From: Candidatus Bathyarchaeia archaeon
GTDB taxonomy: Archaea; Thermoproteota; Bathyarchaeia; Bathyarchaeales; Bathycorpusculaceae
NCBI GenBank assembly: GCA_050015395.1
Contig: JBEKBM010000006.1
Location: 51,235-115,234, forward strand
Length of the DNA stretch: 64,000 bases
Direction of reading: 5' to 3'
In this document: positions 16,363 to 28,083 of the stretch, one piece after another
How positions within the stretch are numbered: position 1 is the stretch's first letter
Layout: every line of letters starts with the position of its first letter
Notes under the pieces: model-generated
What the model was told of the DNA's origin: nothing
What the model saw: only the letters and a program-made list of their open reading frames with translations
Database searches by the model: none
Position numbers and translations under genes: made by a program

Positions 16363-17646
16363 TCAAACAAGGACGCCCTTCAGATAAGTAGCCGAAGCCT
16401 CAACAACCTCAACTGTAATCGTTTTGCCCAGCAGGTTATCTGTACTTTTTATAGCGACGGGTTTGTAAGCAAAATTGCGTCCCACCCATGAACCTTCAAC
16501 TTTGCCTTTCTCATCAACAAGCACTTCGCCAACCCAACCGACCCAACGCTGATTCCGCTCAAAAGAAACCTGCTTAGCCAACTGAGCTGCAACAGTGCTT
16601 CTGCGCTTAATTTCCTCTCGTTCAACCAAACCATCCTGGATTTGTGCTGCTGAAGTTTTGGGTCTGGCAAAAAACTTTGAAACATTAACAATATCAGGCT
16701 TAACTTCCTCTAAGAGCTTAAGCGTCTTCTCAAAAGCCTCGGCTGTTTCGCCTGGAAAACCCACAATGACATCTGTAGCAAGCGTTAAGTCGGGAAACTC
16801 TGCCCTAAACGCCTCCACAATGCCCTTGAATTGCTCAGCGGTGTAAAATCTTCGCATACGCTTCAACGTCTCGTCATCGCCGCTTTGTACTGGTAAATGC
16901 AAAAACTTGAACACTTTATCACTCCTAAAAGCCTCAACAAGGCGGTTTTTCATGTCAGTGACCATGTTCGGCGTCATCATGCCAACACGAACCTTAAAAT
17001 CACCAGCTAAACCATCAAGCGCTTCCAGCAACTCCGCAAGGTTACTGCCTAAATCTCTTCCATAGCAAGCTGTATCCTGCGAAGTTATCCAAAACTCCCT
17101 GGCGCCAGCAGCAAAATCGCTTTGCACACGCTCAGCAACTTCCTTTATGCTGTAGCTTCGCAGGTGACCACGCGCAAAAACAACACAACAGTACGCACAA
17201 GAACCCAAACAACCATAATTCACGGGGACGACGCTTACGACGGGATTAGACTTAACTCTTGGAAGATCAAGCTTTGGCTTAGCGTCCAAACCACCCAATT
17301 CCACAACTTTCTCGCCATCCAAAACACGGGAAACCACATCCACAATTCCTTTGCCGACCGCTGGACCCACAACGCCATCAAAGCGAGCTTCACGCATCAA
17401 CCGCTCAAAACTAATCATGGGCAAACAACCTGCAACAATAAGCTTCTTGCCCTTTGGTGCACGCTTCAAAGCGTCAATAATGCGGTTCTCCGTTGGACCC
17501 TTCACAGCGCAGGTATTGTAGATTAGCACGTCAGCTTCAGCTTCCGATGCCGCCAGTTGAAAGCCAGCTTGCGCTAGGCAACCTGCCAAAACCTCGCTAT
17601 CAGCCATATTCGCCGAACAGCCAAAGCTTCTAACGAAAACCTGCAA
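16363..17646 (-). CDS. mtaB: tRNA t6A37 methylthiotransferase (archaeal MtaB/MiaB-like radical SAM)
   Basis: FGCSAN, NTCAVK, AGCL, GCLGSCAYC, HLPVQSG, IVGFPGE, C-terminal TRAM domain. Confidence 0.88.
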   Translation of the reverse strand: MQVFVRSFGCSANMADSEVLAGCLAQAGFQLAASEAEADVLIYNTCAVKGPTENRIIDALKRAPKGKKLIVAGCLPMISFERLMREARFDGVVGPAVGKGIVDVVSRVLDGEKVVELGGLDAKPKLDLPRVKSNPVVSVVPVNYGCLGSCAYCCVVFARGHLRSYSIKEVAERVQSDFAAGAREFWITSQDTACYGRDLGSNLAELLEALDGLAGDFKVRVGMMTPNMVTDMKNRLVEAFRSDKVFKFLHLPVQSGDDETLKRMRRFYTAEQFKGIVEAFRAEFPDLTLATDVIVGFPGETAEAFEKTLKLLEEVKPDIVNVSKFFARPKTSAAQIQDGLVEREEIKRRSTVAAQLAKQVSFERNQRWVGWVGEVLVDEKGKVEGSWVGRNFAYKPVAIKSTDNLLGKTITVEVVEASATYLKGVLV

Positions 17647-19099: not shown

Positions 19100-20234
19100 T
19101 TTGTTGTATGTCACTTTTCGGTGCTTCAGTTCTCCAGTCGGGGGCAGCCTTTTTCCTTAAAACAAACACTTGGATTGAACCAATAATTATTAACACCATC
19201 CATATGTTGGAATAGAAAAAGTAGTAAACGAATAATTCGTGAAGTTTCATTTCCCTAAAACCAAGTTTTCTTGAGAAACCGTAGAAAACAGCGGCAGTTA
19301 ACACAAAACTGGATAGCGAAATAATTAATATCTTAAGTAAGTTTGCGGTTGCAAGGGAAACTAGGAAAACTGGCATTAAAATGTTGAATTTTACTGACAA
19401 AAACAGTGAGAATACCAGCAGTGAATTGTACATCCAGAGGTTTGGCATTAGAACGCTTATGAAGAAAATGGCGACGGAAGGGTAAAGGAAGAATAAGCTT
19501 GGCAGAAAAACTTGAGGTTTCTTAATAAATTTTTTTCCTAAATCACGATGCCAACGTTCCAACCACAACGCTTGACCTATTGCCCATCTTCGGCGCTGCT
19601 TAAACCATTTTCTCCATTCGGAGTAAACAACGTTTTTTACTTCAACGTCGGTGGTGTATGCGAAACTGCTGCCTTCGAGGAAAGCTCTTGTTGCAATGTC
19701 AATGTCTTCGGCAACAACCTTGTGGAAACCGCCAACTTTCTCGAACATTTCTCGCTTAATCGCAAACGCTGCACCGTTCACAGCAGGACACTTATGCATG
19801 TACCTTGACGATAACCAAGTGCTAATGTTAAACGTAAAATATTCATAATAAGCCATCTTGGACAAAAATGATTTCCCTTTTGAAACCTTCTTTTTTATAT
19901 CAAGCACATCAGCCAGCTGCATTTCCATAATAATTTTTCTCAAAAAATCAGGATCATCACTTATTTCAACATCGGAATCAAGGAAAAGCAGCACTTTTCC
20001 CGAAGACAACTTAGCAGTGCTATTTAGTGCGTTTGCCTTCCCAATACGCTCTTTGTTAACAATGAATTTGATGTTATCGTTCTCTAACTGTTTTATTTTT
20101 TCGGAAAAATCTTGGGTTGGCTCATCAATTGTTACAAAAATTTCTTTTGTTACGTTTTGAGAACTTAGTTTATTTAGCATGGACGCTAGCTGGTTCGATT
20201 CTTTGTAAACTGGGATGAAGATGCTGATGTCCAC
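19071..20234 (-). CDS. GT2 glycosyltransferase with C-terminal TM helices
   Basis: IPVYKE, GKANALN, DSD, AEDID, QRRRW. Confidence 0.9.
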   Translation of the reverse strand: MDISIFIPVYKESNQLASMLNKLSSQNVTKEIFVTIDEPTQDFSEKIKQLENDNIKFIVNKERIGKANALNSTAKLSSGKVLLFLDSDVEISDDPDFLRKIIMEMQLADVLDIKKKVSKGKSFLSKMAYYEYFTFNISTWLSSRYMHKCPAVNGAAFAIKREMFEKVGGFHKVVAEDIDIATRAFLEGSSFAYTTDVEVKNVVYSEWRKWFKQRRRWAIGQALWLERWHRDLGKKFIKKPQVFLPSLFFLYPSVAIFFISVLMPNLWMYNSLLVFSLFLSVKFNILMPVFLVSLATANLLKILIISLSSFVLTAAVFYGFSRKLGFREMKLHELFVYYFFYSNIWMVLIIIGSIQVFVLRKKAAPDWRTEAPKSDIQQINPSSLPVP

Positions 20235-20432
20235 AGCCAGTCCTCAATTATTAAGCATAAATCCAAATGTTTTATTTTCAAACGGGTTTTTAAATTATTC
20301 TAGAAAAAAGGGAGCATGCAAGGTATGGAAGGGTGAAAAAGTAGGATTTGCTCTAATTATACGCAACGGGATCCCATACCTTGATTGCAAGAAATAAGAA
20401 GAAAATGATTTTGCATGCTTTAACGTTGCTGG

Positions 20433-20963
20433 CTACTGCATGCTAACCAGATTTTTTACCTCAGTTTTTGAAATTGGGCCAATTCTGTACAGAATCTCAG
20501 GTTCATGACCGTCGTTTTCGAAGTCTTCTTCGTTAAACAACACATTTTCTTCGCATTTGGTGTTTAGTAATTGAGCTAATTCACAGAAATTTCTTTTAGA
20601 TGCTTCATTTGAAGGGTTTACGGTGCCTTCAAAATATTTTGCGCCTGTTATGCTGATTTGATGAAGAAGCATGCGTTTTTGCAAGCCGTTTCCCCGGTAA
20701 TCTTTGTGAACCACTACTTCCCAGTTGAAAAAGGTGTCTGGCCTGTCTGGTGGTACATATCCTGAAGAAAAAGCGATTATTTTGTTATTCTGTTCGGTAA
20801 CGACGCAGGTATCTGAGAAATCTTTAGCCAAAAGAAAATAGGTATATCGAGAATTTAACCCTACGTAAGGTCTATTCGCTACAAGCAGTTTGTACACTTC
20901 TTTTATGTCCGACAACACTATGTTTCTGATTCTAAATTTCAAGTATTCTTTAATTCTCTGCAT
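20433..20963 (-). CDS. GNAT acetyltransferase resembling EctA (diaminobutyrate acetyltransferase)
   Basis: [30 protein letters not shown]...[25 protein letters not shown]. Confidence 0.8.
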
Positions 20964-22311
20964 TCAGAATGCACGTTCCTTTGCTTTTTTCTCTTCGTTT
21001 CATTCGAAGGTTTCCTTTTGGTATGAGCGATATTTCATCGTCGTCGGTTAACAATTTTTCAACGCCTACCGCTGTTTGCTCCTCTTCCTCTAATTTTAGC
21101 TGCAAACCGCATTTGTTACAGTTCCTGTCACATGGAATTGATTTGTAGTCGTCAGGTTCTTTGTATGTGGTGATGACGCCTTCATAGTTTCTTAAGACCA
21201 CTTTATTAGTGGACCATGAGACAATGTAGTTTGGCATAAGGGGAATTTTTCCTCCACCTCCAGGAGCATCTATAACGTATTTTGGTACTGCAAGCCCGCT
21301 TGTGTGCCCTACTAGGCTTTCCATGATTTCGATGCCTTTTCCGATGGGTGTTCGAAAATGAGTTAGCCCTTCTGATAGGTCGCATTGGAACAAGTAATAT
21401 GGTCGCACTCTATTTTGTACAAGCTTTTGATTGAGCTTTTTCATAATTTGCGGGCAATCGTTTACACCTGCCAGTAGCACGGATTGGTTTCCTAATGGTA
21501 TTCCCGCATCTGCTAACTTTCTGAGAGCTTCTCGAGAAGATAGTGTAAGTTCTCTTGGATGATTGAAATGAGTGTTCAACCACAAGGGATGATGTTTTTT
21601 AAGCATTTGCACTAGCTCGTCAGTTATTCTATAGGGAAGAACAACAGGTATTCTTGAGCCAATGCGCACCACTTCGATATGTGGAATGCTGTTTAGCTCT
21701 GTTAGAATCCAATCTAGATAATCATCCGGCAACATGAGAGGGTCTCCTCCCGAAAGCAGCACATCGCGTATCTGAGGATTGTTTTCTATGTAGCGAATTC
21801 CTTGGATTATTTGGTGCTTTGAAGGGATGTGGTCAGGGTCGCCAACCTTTCTTTTCCGCGTACAGTGTCTACAGTACATTGCGCAACGGTTACTAACCAG
21901 AAAAAGTACTCTGTCAGGGTATCGATGGGTAATTCCCTTGGTTGGGCTGTCTTTGTCTTCATGTAGGGGGTCTTTCATGTCGTATTTTGAGATTTTTAGT
22001 TCAGCTGGATTAGGAAACGCTTGCTTAAATATGGGGTCATTACGGTAATTTTCTTTTTTTATTAATGATGCATAATATGGCGTTATGCTGAGTGGAAATT
22101 TGCTAATTGTATTTTCGAGTTCTTCATGTTCTTCTTCTGTGAATGTAATACCTGTAAACTTTTCAAAAGCAGCAACAGTTTTTATCGAATTATTCAGTTG
22201 CCATTTATAGTCTTTCCACTTAGTAACAGTAATATTTGCTTCAGCATTTTTAGCGGCGTATTCTTGATAGCTGATGATGTTTTCAGTTTTTTCAACAACC
22301 AATTGTTTCAT
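20950..22311 (-). CDS. ablA: Lysine 2,3-aminomutase (AblA/KamA)
   Basis: [66 protein letters not shown]; likely ATG at 22311. Confidence 0.93.
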
Positions 22312-22580
22312 CTCCGCCAAGCGCTTTCTTACCATTTTCAATAAACATTTTAAGATTTTATAGCTTTTTGACAACTGAAATTCGCCAAAAAGTCAAATCC
22401 GCTTAAGGACAACGAACAAACTGCACTTCGCAAATAAGTCAAGTTCTCTTAACAAAGCCACATACATCCCGAAAAAACCGTCAGCATTTAGCAAGATTAT
22501 TCTTGTTTAGCTTTGTCAGGTTTTTTCTTCTATTATTTATCGTTAGATTATTATTTAAGGTGAAGAATGCTATTGGCGGT

Positions 22581-23676: not shown

Positions 23677-23775
23677 GGGTCCGTGGCGCAGGACGGATAG
23701 CGCGTCAGCCTTCTAACGCCTATTTTGGGGTGTGAAGAGAGCTGAAAGTCATGGGTTCAAATCCCATCGGACCCG
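23677..23775 (+). tRNA. tRNA-Arg(TCT) with a 24-nt intron (23716-23739) at position 37/38
   Basis: Acceptor GGGTCCG/CGGACCC, anticodon stem TCAGC/GCTGA, anticodon TCT at 23712-23714, T-arm GGTTCAAATCC, BHB-like CTTC/GAAG helix. Confidence 0.93.
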
Positions 23776-24529: not shown

Positions 24530-26173
24530 TTACCTTGCTATTTGCAGTAGATACTTGGGTAGCTTTCTGGCTAATGTTATCATGCCATTAATCGAATGAA
24601 AGTCGAGTTTCATCCCCTCACTAAAAGCTGTTAGAGGATCTTCGTGCATTTGTGCAAAGAAATTATTTAGCGATTCAATGCCAGCGTCAAATAGTCTGTT
24701 GGCTGCTTCCCTGTAAAGGGGGTTTGTTAATTCACTAAGTAGTTGGTCGCGAACTTTTTGGGAAAACCAAAGACTTTGTTGCCAAGAAATCCAGAACAGC
24801 TCCCAGACGGCCTTTGGCATTGCCTTCAAGTTTGGATAGCCTTGCTTCTCAAGAGGCGTGTTACTTATAGGGATCGAGAGGAGCGGAAATGTCCACGCCA
24901 TAGCCTTCATGTTTCTTAACTCACTCACGAGTTCTATTGTCTTGACTATGTCATCTTCGTTCTCATCTGGGAAGCCAACTATCATCGTGTAACAAGGGTA
25001 CCAATGATTTTCGTTCATTATTCTAGTAGCTTCAAGGGCTGTCTCAGGCCACTCTTGAGGCGTCCAGGGTCTAGGCTTTCCAGACATGTACTTAGCAATT
25101 ATTCTTGGGCTCCCGCTCTCTAATCCTACATCTGGAAATGTTGGATGCCTAAAATCAAAGCCGGCTATTTCGGATATCTCTTTGACTAAACTTGGGTCTT
25201 GTCTGACAGTGGCAATAGAAACATGAGGAAAAGTCACTGGCACATTGTACTTTTCTATTACAGTTCTGAAGAGTTTAGTGACGGTCTCATGGTTTACCCA
25301 TATGCCGTTTGCACCATATAGCAGTATGTCGTCACTTCTTAAATCAATGTGTTTTAAACCGTTTTTTACGTTAACTTTAATTTCCTCCAAAATTTTTTCA
25401 AGAGGCATGCTTCTGAATTCCAGCGTAGCCGGCGAGCAGAACTGGCACCCTCTTGGGCATCCTCGGGTAATCTGGACTGCGCCTAATCTAGACGGATTGA
25501 CAATAGCTGGAATTTCATCGACTGAGGGTGTTTCGCCGTAAACGATTGAGGGCGTTTTTTCACCATTGATTATGCTGCTGGCTAGTTGCGGAAAAGTGAC
25601 TTCGGCTTCGCCAAAAAACAGGGTATCTATGCCTAACGCTTTTTGGACTGTTGACAACTGCCAGACTCCTTGGCCTCCAACTATAAGCTTGAAATTGTAT
25701 TTTTTCTTGAGCGTTTTGACTTCTTTCATTAGGGTTAGAAACTCGACTTTTGTGCAAGAGTCTCCTCCGCCCAGAAGCGAGGCGAGCGTATAGGTGACTG
25801 GTGCCTTGCCTAGGGGGTCAACGACGCTTAAACCGACAATACATGTGTCCTTGGTAATTGCTCTACGTATTTTGTTTGGTGTCGTGACAATTACTTGTTT
25901 CCTTTCGAATCCTGCATTAAGAAGGGCTGCTTCCACCTTCCTTAGCGGATATGTTGCTATCCTGGCTCTTCCTCGACCGTCTGTCTCAGGAGGAGAGCCT
26001 AAGACTTTTTTCAAGAACGGCTCTGGCACAAGGCGGTATGGAACGCAATGACCAAAATCAAAGAAGGATATGCCACTGAAATTTGTCATAAGGGCTTGGT
26101 CAGCTGTTAGCACTATGGTTCGACTGTCGCTAACTCTTCTTTCGCTTTCATACGCACTTATTATGGGCATCAC
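24530..26173 (-). CDS. B12-binding-domain-type radical SAM protein (archaeal family)
   Basis: YPLRKVEAAL, VGGQG, GEAE, TRGCPRGCQFC, GLESGS, IVGFPDE. Confidence 0.85.
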   Translation of the reverse strand: MMPIISAYESERRVSDSRTIVLTADQALMTNFSGISFFDFGHCVPYRLVPEPFLKKVLGSPPETDGRGRARIATYPLRKVEAALLNAGFERKQVIVTTPNKIRRAITKDTCIVGLSVVDPLGKAPVTYTLASLLGGGDSCTKVEFLTLMKEVKTLKKKYNFKLIVGGQGVWQLSTVQKALGIDTLFFGEAEVTFPQLASSIINGEKTPSIVYGETPSVDEIPAIVNPSRLGAVQITRGCPRGCQFCSPATLEFRSMPLEKILEEIKVNVKNGLKHIDLRSDDILLYGANGIWVNHETVTKLFRTVIEKYNVPVTFPHVSIATVRQDPSLVKEISEIAGFDFRHPTFPDVGLESGSPRIIAKYMSGKPRPWTPQEWPETALEATRIMNENHWYPCYTMIVGFPDENEDDIVKTIELVSELRNMKAMAWTFPLLSIPISNTPLEKQGYPNLKAMPKAVWELFWISWQQSLWFSQKVRDQLLSELTNPLYREAANRLFDAGIESLNNFFAQMHEDPLTAFSEGMKLDFHSINGMITLARKLPKYLLQIAR

Positions 26174-27066: not shown

Positions 27067-28083
27067 TTGAGGTTGAAATTTTTGAAAAATAAGGCACACA
27101 ACTATCAGGAAACAGTAAGGATAGGTCTTAGACTATATCGTGGATTACTTTTAAACTCGTTCGGAGTAAAAGCTCCATTGTTTGGTGGACATAAGTTAAC
27201 TTATAACTGTAACCTTAAGTGTAAAATGTGCCCCTTCTGGAAAAGATCCAGCGAAAATTTAAGCACCCAAAAGGAAAAAGAAATTCTAAAGCAAATTTAC
27301 GATTCAGGTGTTTGCGCTATTGGGTTTGAAGGTGGAGAGCCGCTCTTGAGAAAAGACTTGACTGAAATTCTAGCCTATTCTCGTTCTCTGCCTCTACATA
27401 CAAGCCTTGTCACCAATGGCACGCTCCTCAAATCAAGGATAGATGAAATAGCACCATACATCAACGGTATCGTCTTTGTTTCATTAGATGGTCTGGAGAA
27501 AACTCATGACCTGATAAGAGGTGTTAATGGCTGTTTCAAAGAAGCGCTACAGGGCATAACTGCAGCCAAAAGGAAGGTTTCTGTAACAATCAATATGACC
27601 ATAATGGCTGATAACATCCATGAAGTAGAAGATACGGTGAAATTGGCAAAGGATTTAGGTGTAAGAATCATATTGTCGGTAGCTCATGAGTACCATAACA
27701 TTGATGCGTCTGCACCTCAAGCCGATGAAATTAAAAAGATTGCTAAACAGCTTATTGAATTAAAAAGAAAAGGCTATCCTATTATGAATTCAACTAATTA
27801 TTTTAAAGTAATAGCTAAAGAAAAGAACTGGAAATGCAAACCATGGTCGATTATCAATATTGGTACAGATGGCCGGTTGGTTCTGCCTTGTTACGTTCAT
27901 AATCAGTACGAGACGAGCGCTTCTGTTTTTGAGAATAGCATTAAAGCGGCCACTTCAAGTTTTGATTGGAAAGTAACGCATAACTGTGTAAAATGCAATC
28001 TTCATTGTTACGTGGAGCCTTCTCTTGTGCTTTCATGGGATTTGCGCAGCTGGATAGATTGGGCTTTCCCAGTTAGAACGTGA
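27067..28083 (+). CDS. Radical SAM protein with C-terminal Cys cluster (PTO1314-like)
   Basis: CNLKCKMC, FEGGEPLL, VTNG, VSLDG, CKPW...LPCY...CVKCNLHCYVEPS. Confidence 0.85.
   Translation: MRLKFLKNKAHNYQETVRIGLRLYRGLLLNSFGVKAPLFGGHKLTYNCNLKCKMCPFWKRSSENLSTQKEKEILKQIYDSGVCAIGFEGGEPLLRKDLTEILAYSRSLPLHTSLVTNGTLLKSRIDEIAPYINGIVFVSLDGLEKTHDLIRGVNGCFKEALQGITAAKRKVSVTINMTIMADNIHEVEDTVKLAKDLGVRIILSVAHEYHNIDASAPQADEIKKIAKQLIELKRKGYPIMNSTNYFKVIAKEKNWKCKPWSIINIGTDGRLVLPCYVHNQYETSASVFENSIKAATSSFDWKVTHNCVKCNLHCYVEPSLVLSWDLRSWIDWAFPVRT

Follow-up and report, generated by a model that had tools for sequence, protein, structure and literature searches.

A lysine 2,3-aminomutase gene paired with an EctA-family acetyltransferase in Bathyarchaeia: a candidate route to acetyl-beta-lysine without AblB

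Results

An aminomutase gene overlaps an acetyltransferase gene

We analysed a 64,000-nucleotide stretch of contig JBEKBM010000006.1 (assembly GCA_050015395.1) from a Candidatus Bathyarchaeia archaeon, hereafter called the window. Open reading frame (ORF) calling and translation placed two overlapping genes on its minus strand, an AblA-type gene and, downstream of it, a gene for an acetyltransferase of the GNAT superfamily (below, the GNAT):

20950..22374, minus strand: AblA-type lysine 2,3-aminomutase (radical SAM/pyridoxal phosphate, PLP); longest ORF 474 aa, with a TTG start at 22374
20433..20963, minus strand: EctA-family GNAT acetyltransferase (P0001), 176 aa, ATG start; proposed beta-lysine N-acetyltransferase
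20950..20963, minus strand: overlap of the AblA stop and the GNAT start, 14 nt

A sequence-only reading of this DNA had already reported the overlap, which is borne out as the shared stretch 20950-20963 and suggests translational coupling of the two genes. It had also listed five EctA-style motifs in the acetyltransferase. All five are present in the 176-aa translation, at N37-S-R-Y40, F49-S-D-T-C-V-V, G68 to 81, T114-V-N-P-S-N-E-A-S122 and H153 to 163.

We considered whether the pair is a compositional outlier and dropped the idea, as the GC content of 0.399 at 20001-22000 lies within the range of the window (0.379-0.502).

The upstream gene encodes a lysine 2,3-aminomutase

The upstream protein scored 761.2 bits against the AblA equivalog profile TIGR03820, for which the cut-off is 525.4. 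It contains the Pfam domains LAM_C and Radical_SAM, with positions 1-111 of the 127 in LAM_C covered, and matches the solved lysine 2,3-aminomutase 2A5H at E 1.8e-149. Aligned to that structure, it keeps CxxxCxxC, QCDLS (Asp293), DAPGGGGK (Asp330) and Lys337. We take Asp293 and Asp330 to hold the epsilon-amine of lysine and Lys337 to be the PLP lysine. As the equivalents of all three are kept, the enzyme looks lysine-specific.

Other Bathyarchaeia carry short KamA-like genes of 367-378 aa, which score 487-517 bits on the AblA profile, under its cut-off, and have a truncated LAM_C domain. Two of these, at L072 594-6607 (genome G028) and L073 306-3505 (genome G014), are flanked by ATP-grasp genes resembling D-Ala-D-Ala ligase. 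At L072 one ATP-grasp protein (500 aa) has a GNAT domain fused to its C-terminus, and a gene for an amino-acid permease adjoins it. This separate aminomutase module may represent a pathway of beta-amino-acid ligation.

The acetyltransferase groups with EctA and not with AblB

The 176-aa protein is a GNAT by Pfam. It exceeded the cut-off of the EctA profile TIGR02406, scoring 138.2 bits against 120.6, a marginal result, and gave no match to the AblB profile TIGR03827 at E<=0.1. Its sequence relatives in the PDB were EctA entries only. The AlphaFold2 model of the protein has a predicted local distance difference test score (pLDDT) of 94.5, and EctA chains filled the first ten places among its Foldseek matches in the PDB, with E-values of 1.6e-16 to 1.1e-13, template modelling (TM) scores of 0.82-0.91 and root-mean-square deviations of 1.6-2.1 A; the best entries were 3d3s, 6sjy and 6sll. 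The next GNAT followed at E 3.5e-9, seven orders of magnitude weaker than EctA. The comparison with EctA and AblB models that the sequence-only reading had called for thus comes down on the EctA side by profile, PDB sequence and fold.

Within the family the protein stands apart. Most canonical EctA representatives scored about 160-208 bits on TIGR02406, four other members of the Bathyarchaeia clade scored 128-133, and a further protein, P0130, scored 134.9. Searched exhaustively and without a profile, 1.84 billion representatives yielded 1145 relatives of the GNAT. Among these, fragments from the Bathyarchaeia clade had an identity to the query of 62% or more, and all other relatives had at most 46%.

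Some canonical EctAs are fused to other domains: a MarR-family regulator plus EctA (363 and 384 aa) and EctA plus EctB (418 aa, end cut off) were seen in P0141, P0180 and P0204. No AblA-GNAT fusion was found among the longer proteins searched, which is weak evidence either way. That search also returned one 486-aa match with FtsX/MacB domains, probably a gene-call artefact.

Two near-universal EctA residues are replaced in the Bathyarchaeia clade

We compared alignment columns between 111 sequences of the Bathyarchaeia clade and 132 canonical EctA representatives. The following positions separate the two groups:

Position 82 (F-x-W-Q-V): Glu in the clade (100%, 111/111); Gln in canonical EctA (100%, 132/132)
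Position 35 (L-D-x-N-S): Gly in the clade (100%); Asp (84%) or Glu (15%) in canonical EctA
Position 32: Pro in the clade, a one-residue insertion; absent from canonical EctA
Position 34: Val in the clade; Leu in canonical EctA
Position 95 (end of the R-x-x-G-x-G/A loop): Gln in the clade; Ala or Gly in canonical EctA
Position 125: Asn in the clade; Leu in canonical EctA

EctAs verified by an adjacent ectB and/or ectC carry the Asp and the Gln; the AblA-linked proteins carry the Gly and the Glu. The Glu82/Gly35 signature is a simple rule for separating the clade from canonical EctA.

In the model of the GNAT, the alpha1-alpha2 loop comprises residues 30-38, and strand beta4 contains residue 82. 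These two elements line the acceptor-substrate cleft in the GNAT fold generally. By alignment to 6SJY, the counterparts of positions 35 and 82 in P. lautus EctA are Asp33 and Gln80, of which Asp33 presumably contacts the substrate. The loss of two canonical EctA residues fits a changed substrate. More specifically, the space left by Gly and the move of an acidic chain from the loop to beta4 would fit a substrate longer than diaminobutyrate, with its amino and carboxylate groups 1-2 atoms further from the acetylated nitrogen.

A tree of 99 rows recovered the Bathyarchaeia clade as monophyletic on a long stem (Shimodaira-Hasegawa-like approximate likelihood-ratio support, SH-aLRT, 98). P0130, a 170-aa protein from the representative library, was its sister with support of 98 and was itself a long branch. 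It shares Pro32, Val34, Gly35 and Glu82, and among the 150 best representatives it alone carries that signature outside the clade. No locus for P0130 was found in the metagenome scan, and the cluster look-up gave no name; in the Atlas, the cluster nearest to it is a Bathyarchaeota GNAT cluster.

A quick tree rooted with five distant Bathyarchaeia GNATs nested the clade several nodes inside the canonical EctAs, with a best path support of 93. An approximately unbiased (AU) test did not reject an arrangement with canonical EctAs as one clade and the Bathyarchaeia clade outside it (p 0.553), and the tree constrained to that sister arrangement scored 4.88 log-likelihood (lnL) units above the nested tree. 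On these two results we abandoned a derivation of the clade from within EctA as a claim. The alignment fits either an origin within EctA or an old sister lineage. The idea, put forward from the sequence alone, that an EctA-derived enzyme was recruited thus survives in part: the protein groups with EctA by score and fold, but the AU test does not favour descent from within EctA over a sister position.

The pair is conserved across changing gene neighbourhoods

We scanned one genome per species, 185,579 species in all, for the GNAT and recovered 57 loci. Fifty-five of them encode proteins 63-93% identical to the GNAT. By record name, these comprise 50 Bathyarchaeota/Bathyarchaeia, 2 'uncultured archaeon' and one each of Crenarchaeota, Thermoproteota and Acidoferrum. 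The other two loci encode Nitrococcus EctAs with 40-44% identity; behind one of these lies a gene for a true EctB (647.8 bits).

In 53 of the 55 Bathyarchaeia-type loci, tblastn identified AblA as the next gene upstream of the GNAT in the same orientation, a recurrence which argues that the gene order is not due to chance. The projected distance from AblA stop to GNAT start in related loci is mostly -14 to +25 nt. The surroundings vary. In some 31-33 loci the pair has a ThiI-like gene and a GT2 glycosyltransferase at its sides, in 7 loci it is followed by an HD protein, succinate dehydrogenase subunits (SdhAB) and fumarase, and others place it beside UvrB, xanthine-dehydrogenase-like genes or an EamA transporter. 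Only the AblA/GNAT pair is constant across these contexts.

An evenly drawn sample of 201 Bathyarchaeia genomes was searched with profiles and their cut-offs; EctA-like proteins were found in 7 and AblA in 7. These were the same seven genomes, with the two genes at adjacent coordinates. AblB exceeded its cut-off in none of the 201. Within the genus of the window's own genome the pair is present in 3 of 12 genomes, and it can therefore be described as an accessory cassette. The survey of ablA neighbourhoods proposed earlier has thus returned the same pairing, both in all but two of the related loci and in every sampled genome with either gene.

Ectoine and lysine-fermentation partners were not found in the genome

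The genome that contains the window (2.59 Mb, 42 contigs, 98.9% complete) was searched whole for partner enzymes. AblB (TIGR03827) gave no match. EctC (PF06339) gave none either, with a control that matched 4/4 canonical archaeal genomes. The best EctB candidate reached 227.7 bits against a cut-off of 552.2, compared with 650-660 bits for the controls. The EctB and EctC controls were four Nitrososphaeria-like genomes of the same phylum, and in both control genomes checked for all three genes, ectA, ectB (650-660 bits) and ectC were contiguous.

The same absences were seen in other genomes with the pair. EctC was missing from 6/6 pair-bearing Bathyarchaeia genomes (the window's genome and five others), and EctB did not exceed its cut-off in the window's genome or in three further pair-bearing genomes, where the best score was about 229 bits against 552. 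The sequence-only reading had noted the lack of ablB, ectB, ectC and kamD in the window. This now holds genome-wide for AblB, EctB and EctC, and its concern that ectBC might lie elsewhere is answered in that neither exceeds its cut-off in this genome or in the pair-bearing genomes checked. KamD (PF09043) also gave no match, although the model matched no control genome, so this negative is weak. As EctB and EctC are absent, no known route leads to or from acetyl-diaminobutyrate.

These results bear on whether the GNAT is simply a true diaminobutyrate acetyltransferase, producing N-gamma-acetyl-diaminobutyrate as a solute or feeding an ectoine pathway completed by unrecognised enzymes. Its score over the TIGR02406 equivalog cut-off, its database names and its EctA-like fold would all agree with that role. 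It is nonetheless very improbable, given that ectC and ectB are lacking wherever they were looked for whilst the controls were positive, that the score is marginal beside canonical members, that the universal Gln and the Asp/Glu are replaced in 111/111 sequences, and that the gene is tied to AblA and never to ect genes. We conclude that the GNAT is an EctA-family protein but probably not a diaminobutyrate acetyltransferase, since it has the score and fold of EctA and lacks both the gene context and the invariant residues.

A catabolic role, with the pair opening a route of lysine fermentation or degradation, was also considered. KamA starts clostridial lysine fermentation, and Bathyarchaeia are widely regarded as fermenters of amino acids. 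Against this, neither KamD (with the failed control mentioned above) nor Kce/BKACE (PF05853; 0 matches in the whole genome, control positive) was found, no catabolic gene is a conserved neighbour, and the known fermentation route does not include an acetylation of beta-lysine. Of the explanations weighed here we regard this as the least probable.

A supply of lysine is predicted. LysA is present in the genome at 467 bits, over a cut-off of 298.

Upstream elements, transcripts and neighbouring genes

Two further elements lie upstream of the pair:

22355..22362, minus strand: TATA-box-like element TATAAAAT, about 21 nt upstream of the ATG at 22334; read from the sequence
22373-22406 and 22419-22452, no strand assigned: two copies of a 34-nt direct repeat, 79% alike at 46-nt spacing, upstream of the TATA-like box

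The element TATAAAAT is a putative archaeal promoter, from which the mRNA would be leaderless or short-leadered. Two ATGs lie in frame within the AblA ORF, at 22334 and at 22311, and the sequence-only reading took the second of these as the start. Either is a likelier start than the TTG at 22374, which is disfavoured because the TATA-like box sits downstream of it.

Of 45 related loci, 8 have two copies of a 24-nt core of the repeat, TTGACTTnTTnGCGAAnTnCAGTT, upstream of ablA, and another 3 have one. Loci with the core include ones with different flanking genes, which suggests that the element moves together with the pair. The direct repeat may be an operator, a candidate binding site for a regulator.

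The window DNA was matched in peat and wetland metagenome runs. RNA-library contigs span the AblA/GNAT junction in three runs from three studies (X19 record 3, X20 record 9 and X22 record 19). The RNA runs share 0.05-0.14 of words, and most of their pieces are 90-95% alike, indicating that they, including the junction-spanning contigs, come from relatives and not from this strain; carry-over of DNA into the libraries is possible. The spacer between the GNAT and the GT2 gene and the DNA upstream of about 22357 have no RNA-contig cover, and we did not use them as evidence for transcript ends.

Three more radical-SAM genes lie less than 6 kb from the pair:

16363-17646, minus strand: MiaB-like methylthiotransferase, radical SAM
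24530-26173, minus strand: 547-aa protein with weak similarity to B12-binding/radical-SAM families
27067-28083, plus strand: PTO1314-family protein with DUF3463 (331 bits), radical SAM

None of the three stays beside the pair in loci with other contexts. A 99-nt match to tRNA at 23677-23775 on the plus strand (Rfam, 55.5 bits; no ARAGORN call) is probably an intron-containing archaeal tRNA.

Discussion

A proposed two-step pathway

On balance, we think it probable that the GNAT is an EctA-family beta-lysine N-acetyltransferase standing in for AblB. In this proposal the organism's own diaminopimelate pathway, represented by LysA, would supply lysine to AblA, which would convert L-lysine to beta-lysine (3,6-diaminohexanoate). 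The co-translated GNAT would then acetylate beta-lysine with acetyl-CoA. By analogy, the acetyl group would most likely be placed on the terminal N-epsilon amine, as EctA acetylates the terminal amine of diaminobutyrate, and the product, N-epsilon-acetyl-beta-lysine, would serve as a compatible solute. The GNAT would thereby fill the role that AblB, to which it is unrelated in sequence, has in methanogens. We infer the substrate, the regiochemistry and the physiological role of the GNAT from genomic data. The term 'hybrid osmolyte pathway', used for the pair in the sequence-only reading, overstates the case: what is proposed is an AblAB-like two-step route with another acetyltransferase.

Several observations weigh against this proposal. 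The records of the carriers point to peat, wetland and soil and not to saline habitats, so that a classic role in salt stress is not obvious. The GNAT passes the NCBI EctA equivalog cut-off and retains most EctA motif residues (N37, S38, Y40, Y42, F79, W81, T114, N119, S122, H153 and E156), and for these two reasons it may use a diaminobutyrate-like substrate. The structural roles proposed for positions 35 and 82 draw on general knowledge of GNAT enzymes and of P. lautus EctA. In five loci (L017, L042, L045, L059 and L063) the AblA or GNAT frame is truncated or split into two or three ORFs, which may reflect gene decay or indel errors in assembly. Finally, two loci, L039 (5354-6700) and L041 (2989-4300), keep the GNAT without an AblA anywhere in the assembly, an eIF-1A gene occupying the place of AblA. 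The two GNATs are near-identical, and the absence is therefore probably one event. The GNAT can thus be retained, at least temporarily, in a genome that lacks the enzyme proposed to supply its substrate.

The record of L041 is titled Acidoferrum, a bacterial genus, but its neighbouring genes (eIF-1A, RIO kinase, KH protein) are of archaeal type, and the contig is probably misbinned.

The two genomes without AblA would agree with a GNAT that acetylates some other amine, such as alpha-lysine (giving N-epsilon-acetyl-lysine), ornithine, a polyamine or a protein, and is linked to AblA by shared regulation or a common lysine pool. GNATs are also often promiscuous. This explanation is improbable in view of the co-occurrence of the two genes in 7/7 genomes and 53/55 loci, of their overlapping or near-touching frames, and of a cassette that moves as a unit.

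A closer variant is that the GNAT does use the product of AblA but with a different outcome, acetylating N3 (the beta-amino group) or both amines, or making an intermediate of an undescribed solute or metabolite. The linkage evidence serves it equally well. The swap of charge at positions 35 (Asp/Glu to Gly) and 82 (Gln to Glu) points to a rebuilt substrate site and leaves the pose of the substrate unspecified, the habitat is non-saline, and in the 31-33 loci with a GT2 glycosyltransferase that gene follows the pair on the same strand. This last gene is, however, absent from about 22 loci and lies 198 nt from the GNAT in the window. Moreover, no further partner enzyme is conserved when the context changes, and EctA-family chemistry is known to target the terminal amine. 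We therefore hold this variant to be unlikely.

A broader view would be that the cassette makes, in place of the methanogen solute, an undescribed acetylated beta-amino acid, with the rebuilt acceptor site (its acidic residue shifted from the alpha1-alpha2 loop to beta4) steering acetylation to another position or substrate, and with a use unrelated to salt, such as in drought, freezing or acid stress or in nitrogen storage; the cassette would be under control of the 24-nt repeat, and P0130 would mark a wider subfamily. We consider this unlikely.

Implications

If the GNAT does acetylate beta-lysine in place of AblB, it would be a second, independently recruited acetyltransferase for acetyl-beta-lysine synthesis. 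It would also be a natural EctA-fold enzyme retuned to a longer diamino acid, with two signature residues, and the use of beta-amino-acid solutes would extend to Bathyarchaeia, uncultured archaea that are abundant in peat and sediment, and to non-saline habitats. There is a practical consequence for annotation. The source records, from NCBI and IMG, name clade members 'diaminobutyrate acetyltransferase' because these proteins just pass the EctA cut-off, and surveys that count ectA would wrongly credit their genomes with ectoine genes. No earlier description of an AblA/EctA-like GNAT pair was found in the literature searched by title and abstract opening, a coverage that excludes subscription journals.

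Comparison with known systems

According to PMC9128505, a paper which concerns Methanothrix AblB and ectABC, methanogen AblA and AblB make N-epsilon-acetyl-beta-lysine (Pflueger et al. 2003, via PMC9128505). The Bathyarchaeia cassette resembles that system in being a two-gene unit with the same AblA family and a GNAT-superfamily acetyltransferase directly downstream, and in the presence of diaminopimelate-route lysine supply (LysA). It differs in its acetyltransferase, which fails TIGR03827, is 176 aa long compared with the 266 positions of the AblB model, and is an EctA-family protein in both sequence and fold. The carriers also differ, being Bathyarchaeia of peat, wetland and soil rather than salt-adapted methanogens.

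EctA, the L-2,4-diaminobutyrate N-gamma-acetyltransferase of the ectABC ectoine pathway (3D3S, 6SJY, 6SK1, 6SLL), shares with the GNAT its fold, a score over the TIGR02406 cut-off and the motifs N-S-x-Y-x-Y, F-x-W, T-x-x-P-S-N-x-A-S and H-E-x-E-x-L-x-x-I-G-P. By contrast, the GNAT is not accompanied by ectB or ectC, scores within its clade are 128-138 bits compared with about 160-208, and identity is at most 46%. In addition, the Gln of W-Q-V has become Glu, the Asp/Glu of L-D-x-N-S has become Gly with an insertion before it, and the loop ends in Gln.

The arrangement also has a bacterial parallel in B. subtilis KamA and YodP, a lysine 2,3-aminomutase gene beside a beta-lysine acetyltransferase gene. 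In our B. subtilis control genome, AblA and AblB both exceeded their cut-offs. The two systems are alike in placing an aminomutase gene next to an acetyltransferase gene and differ in that the B. subtilis acetyltransferase matches the AblB model.

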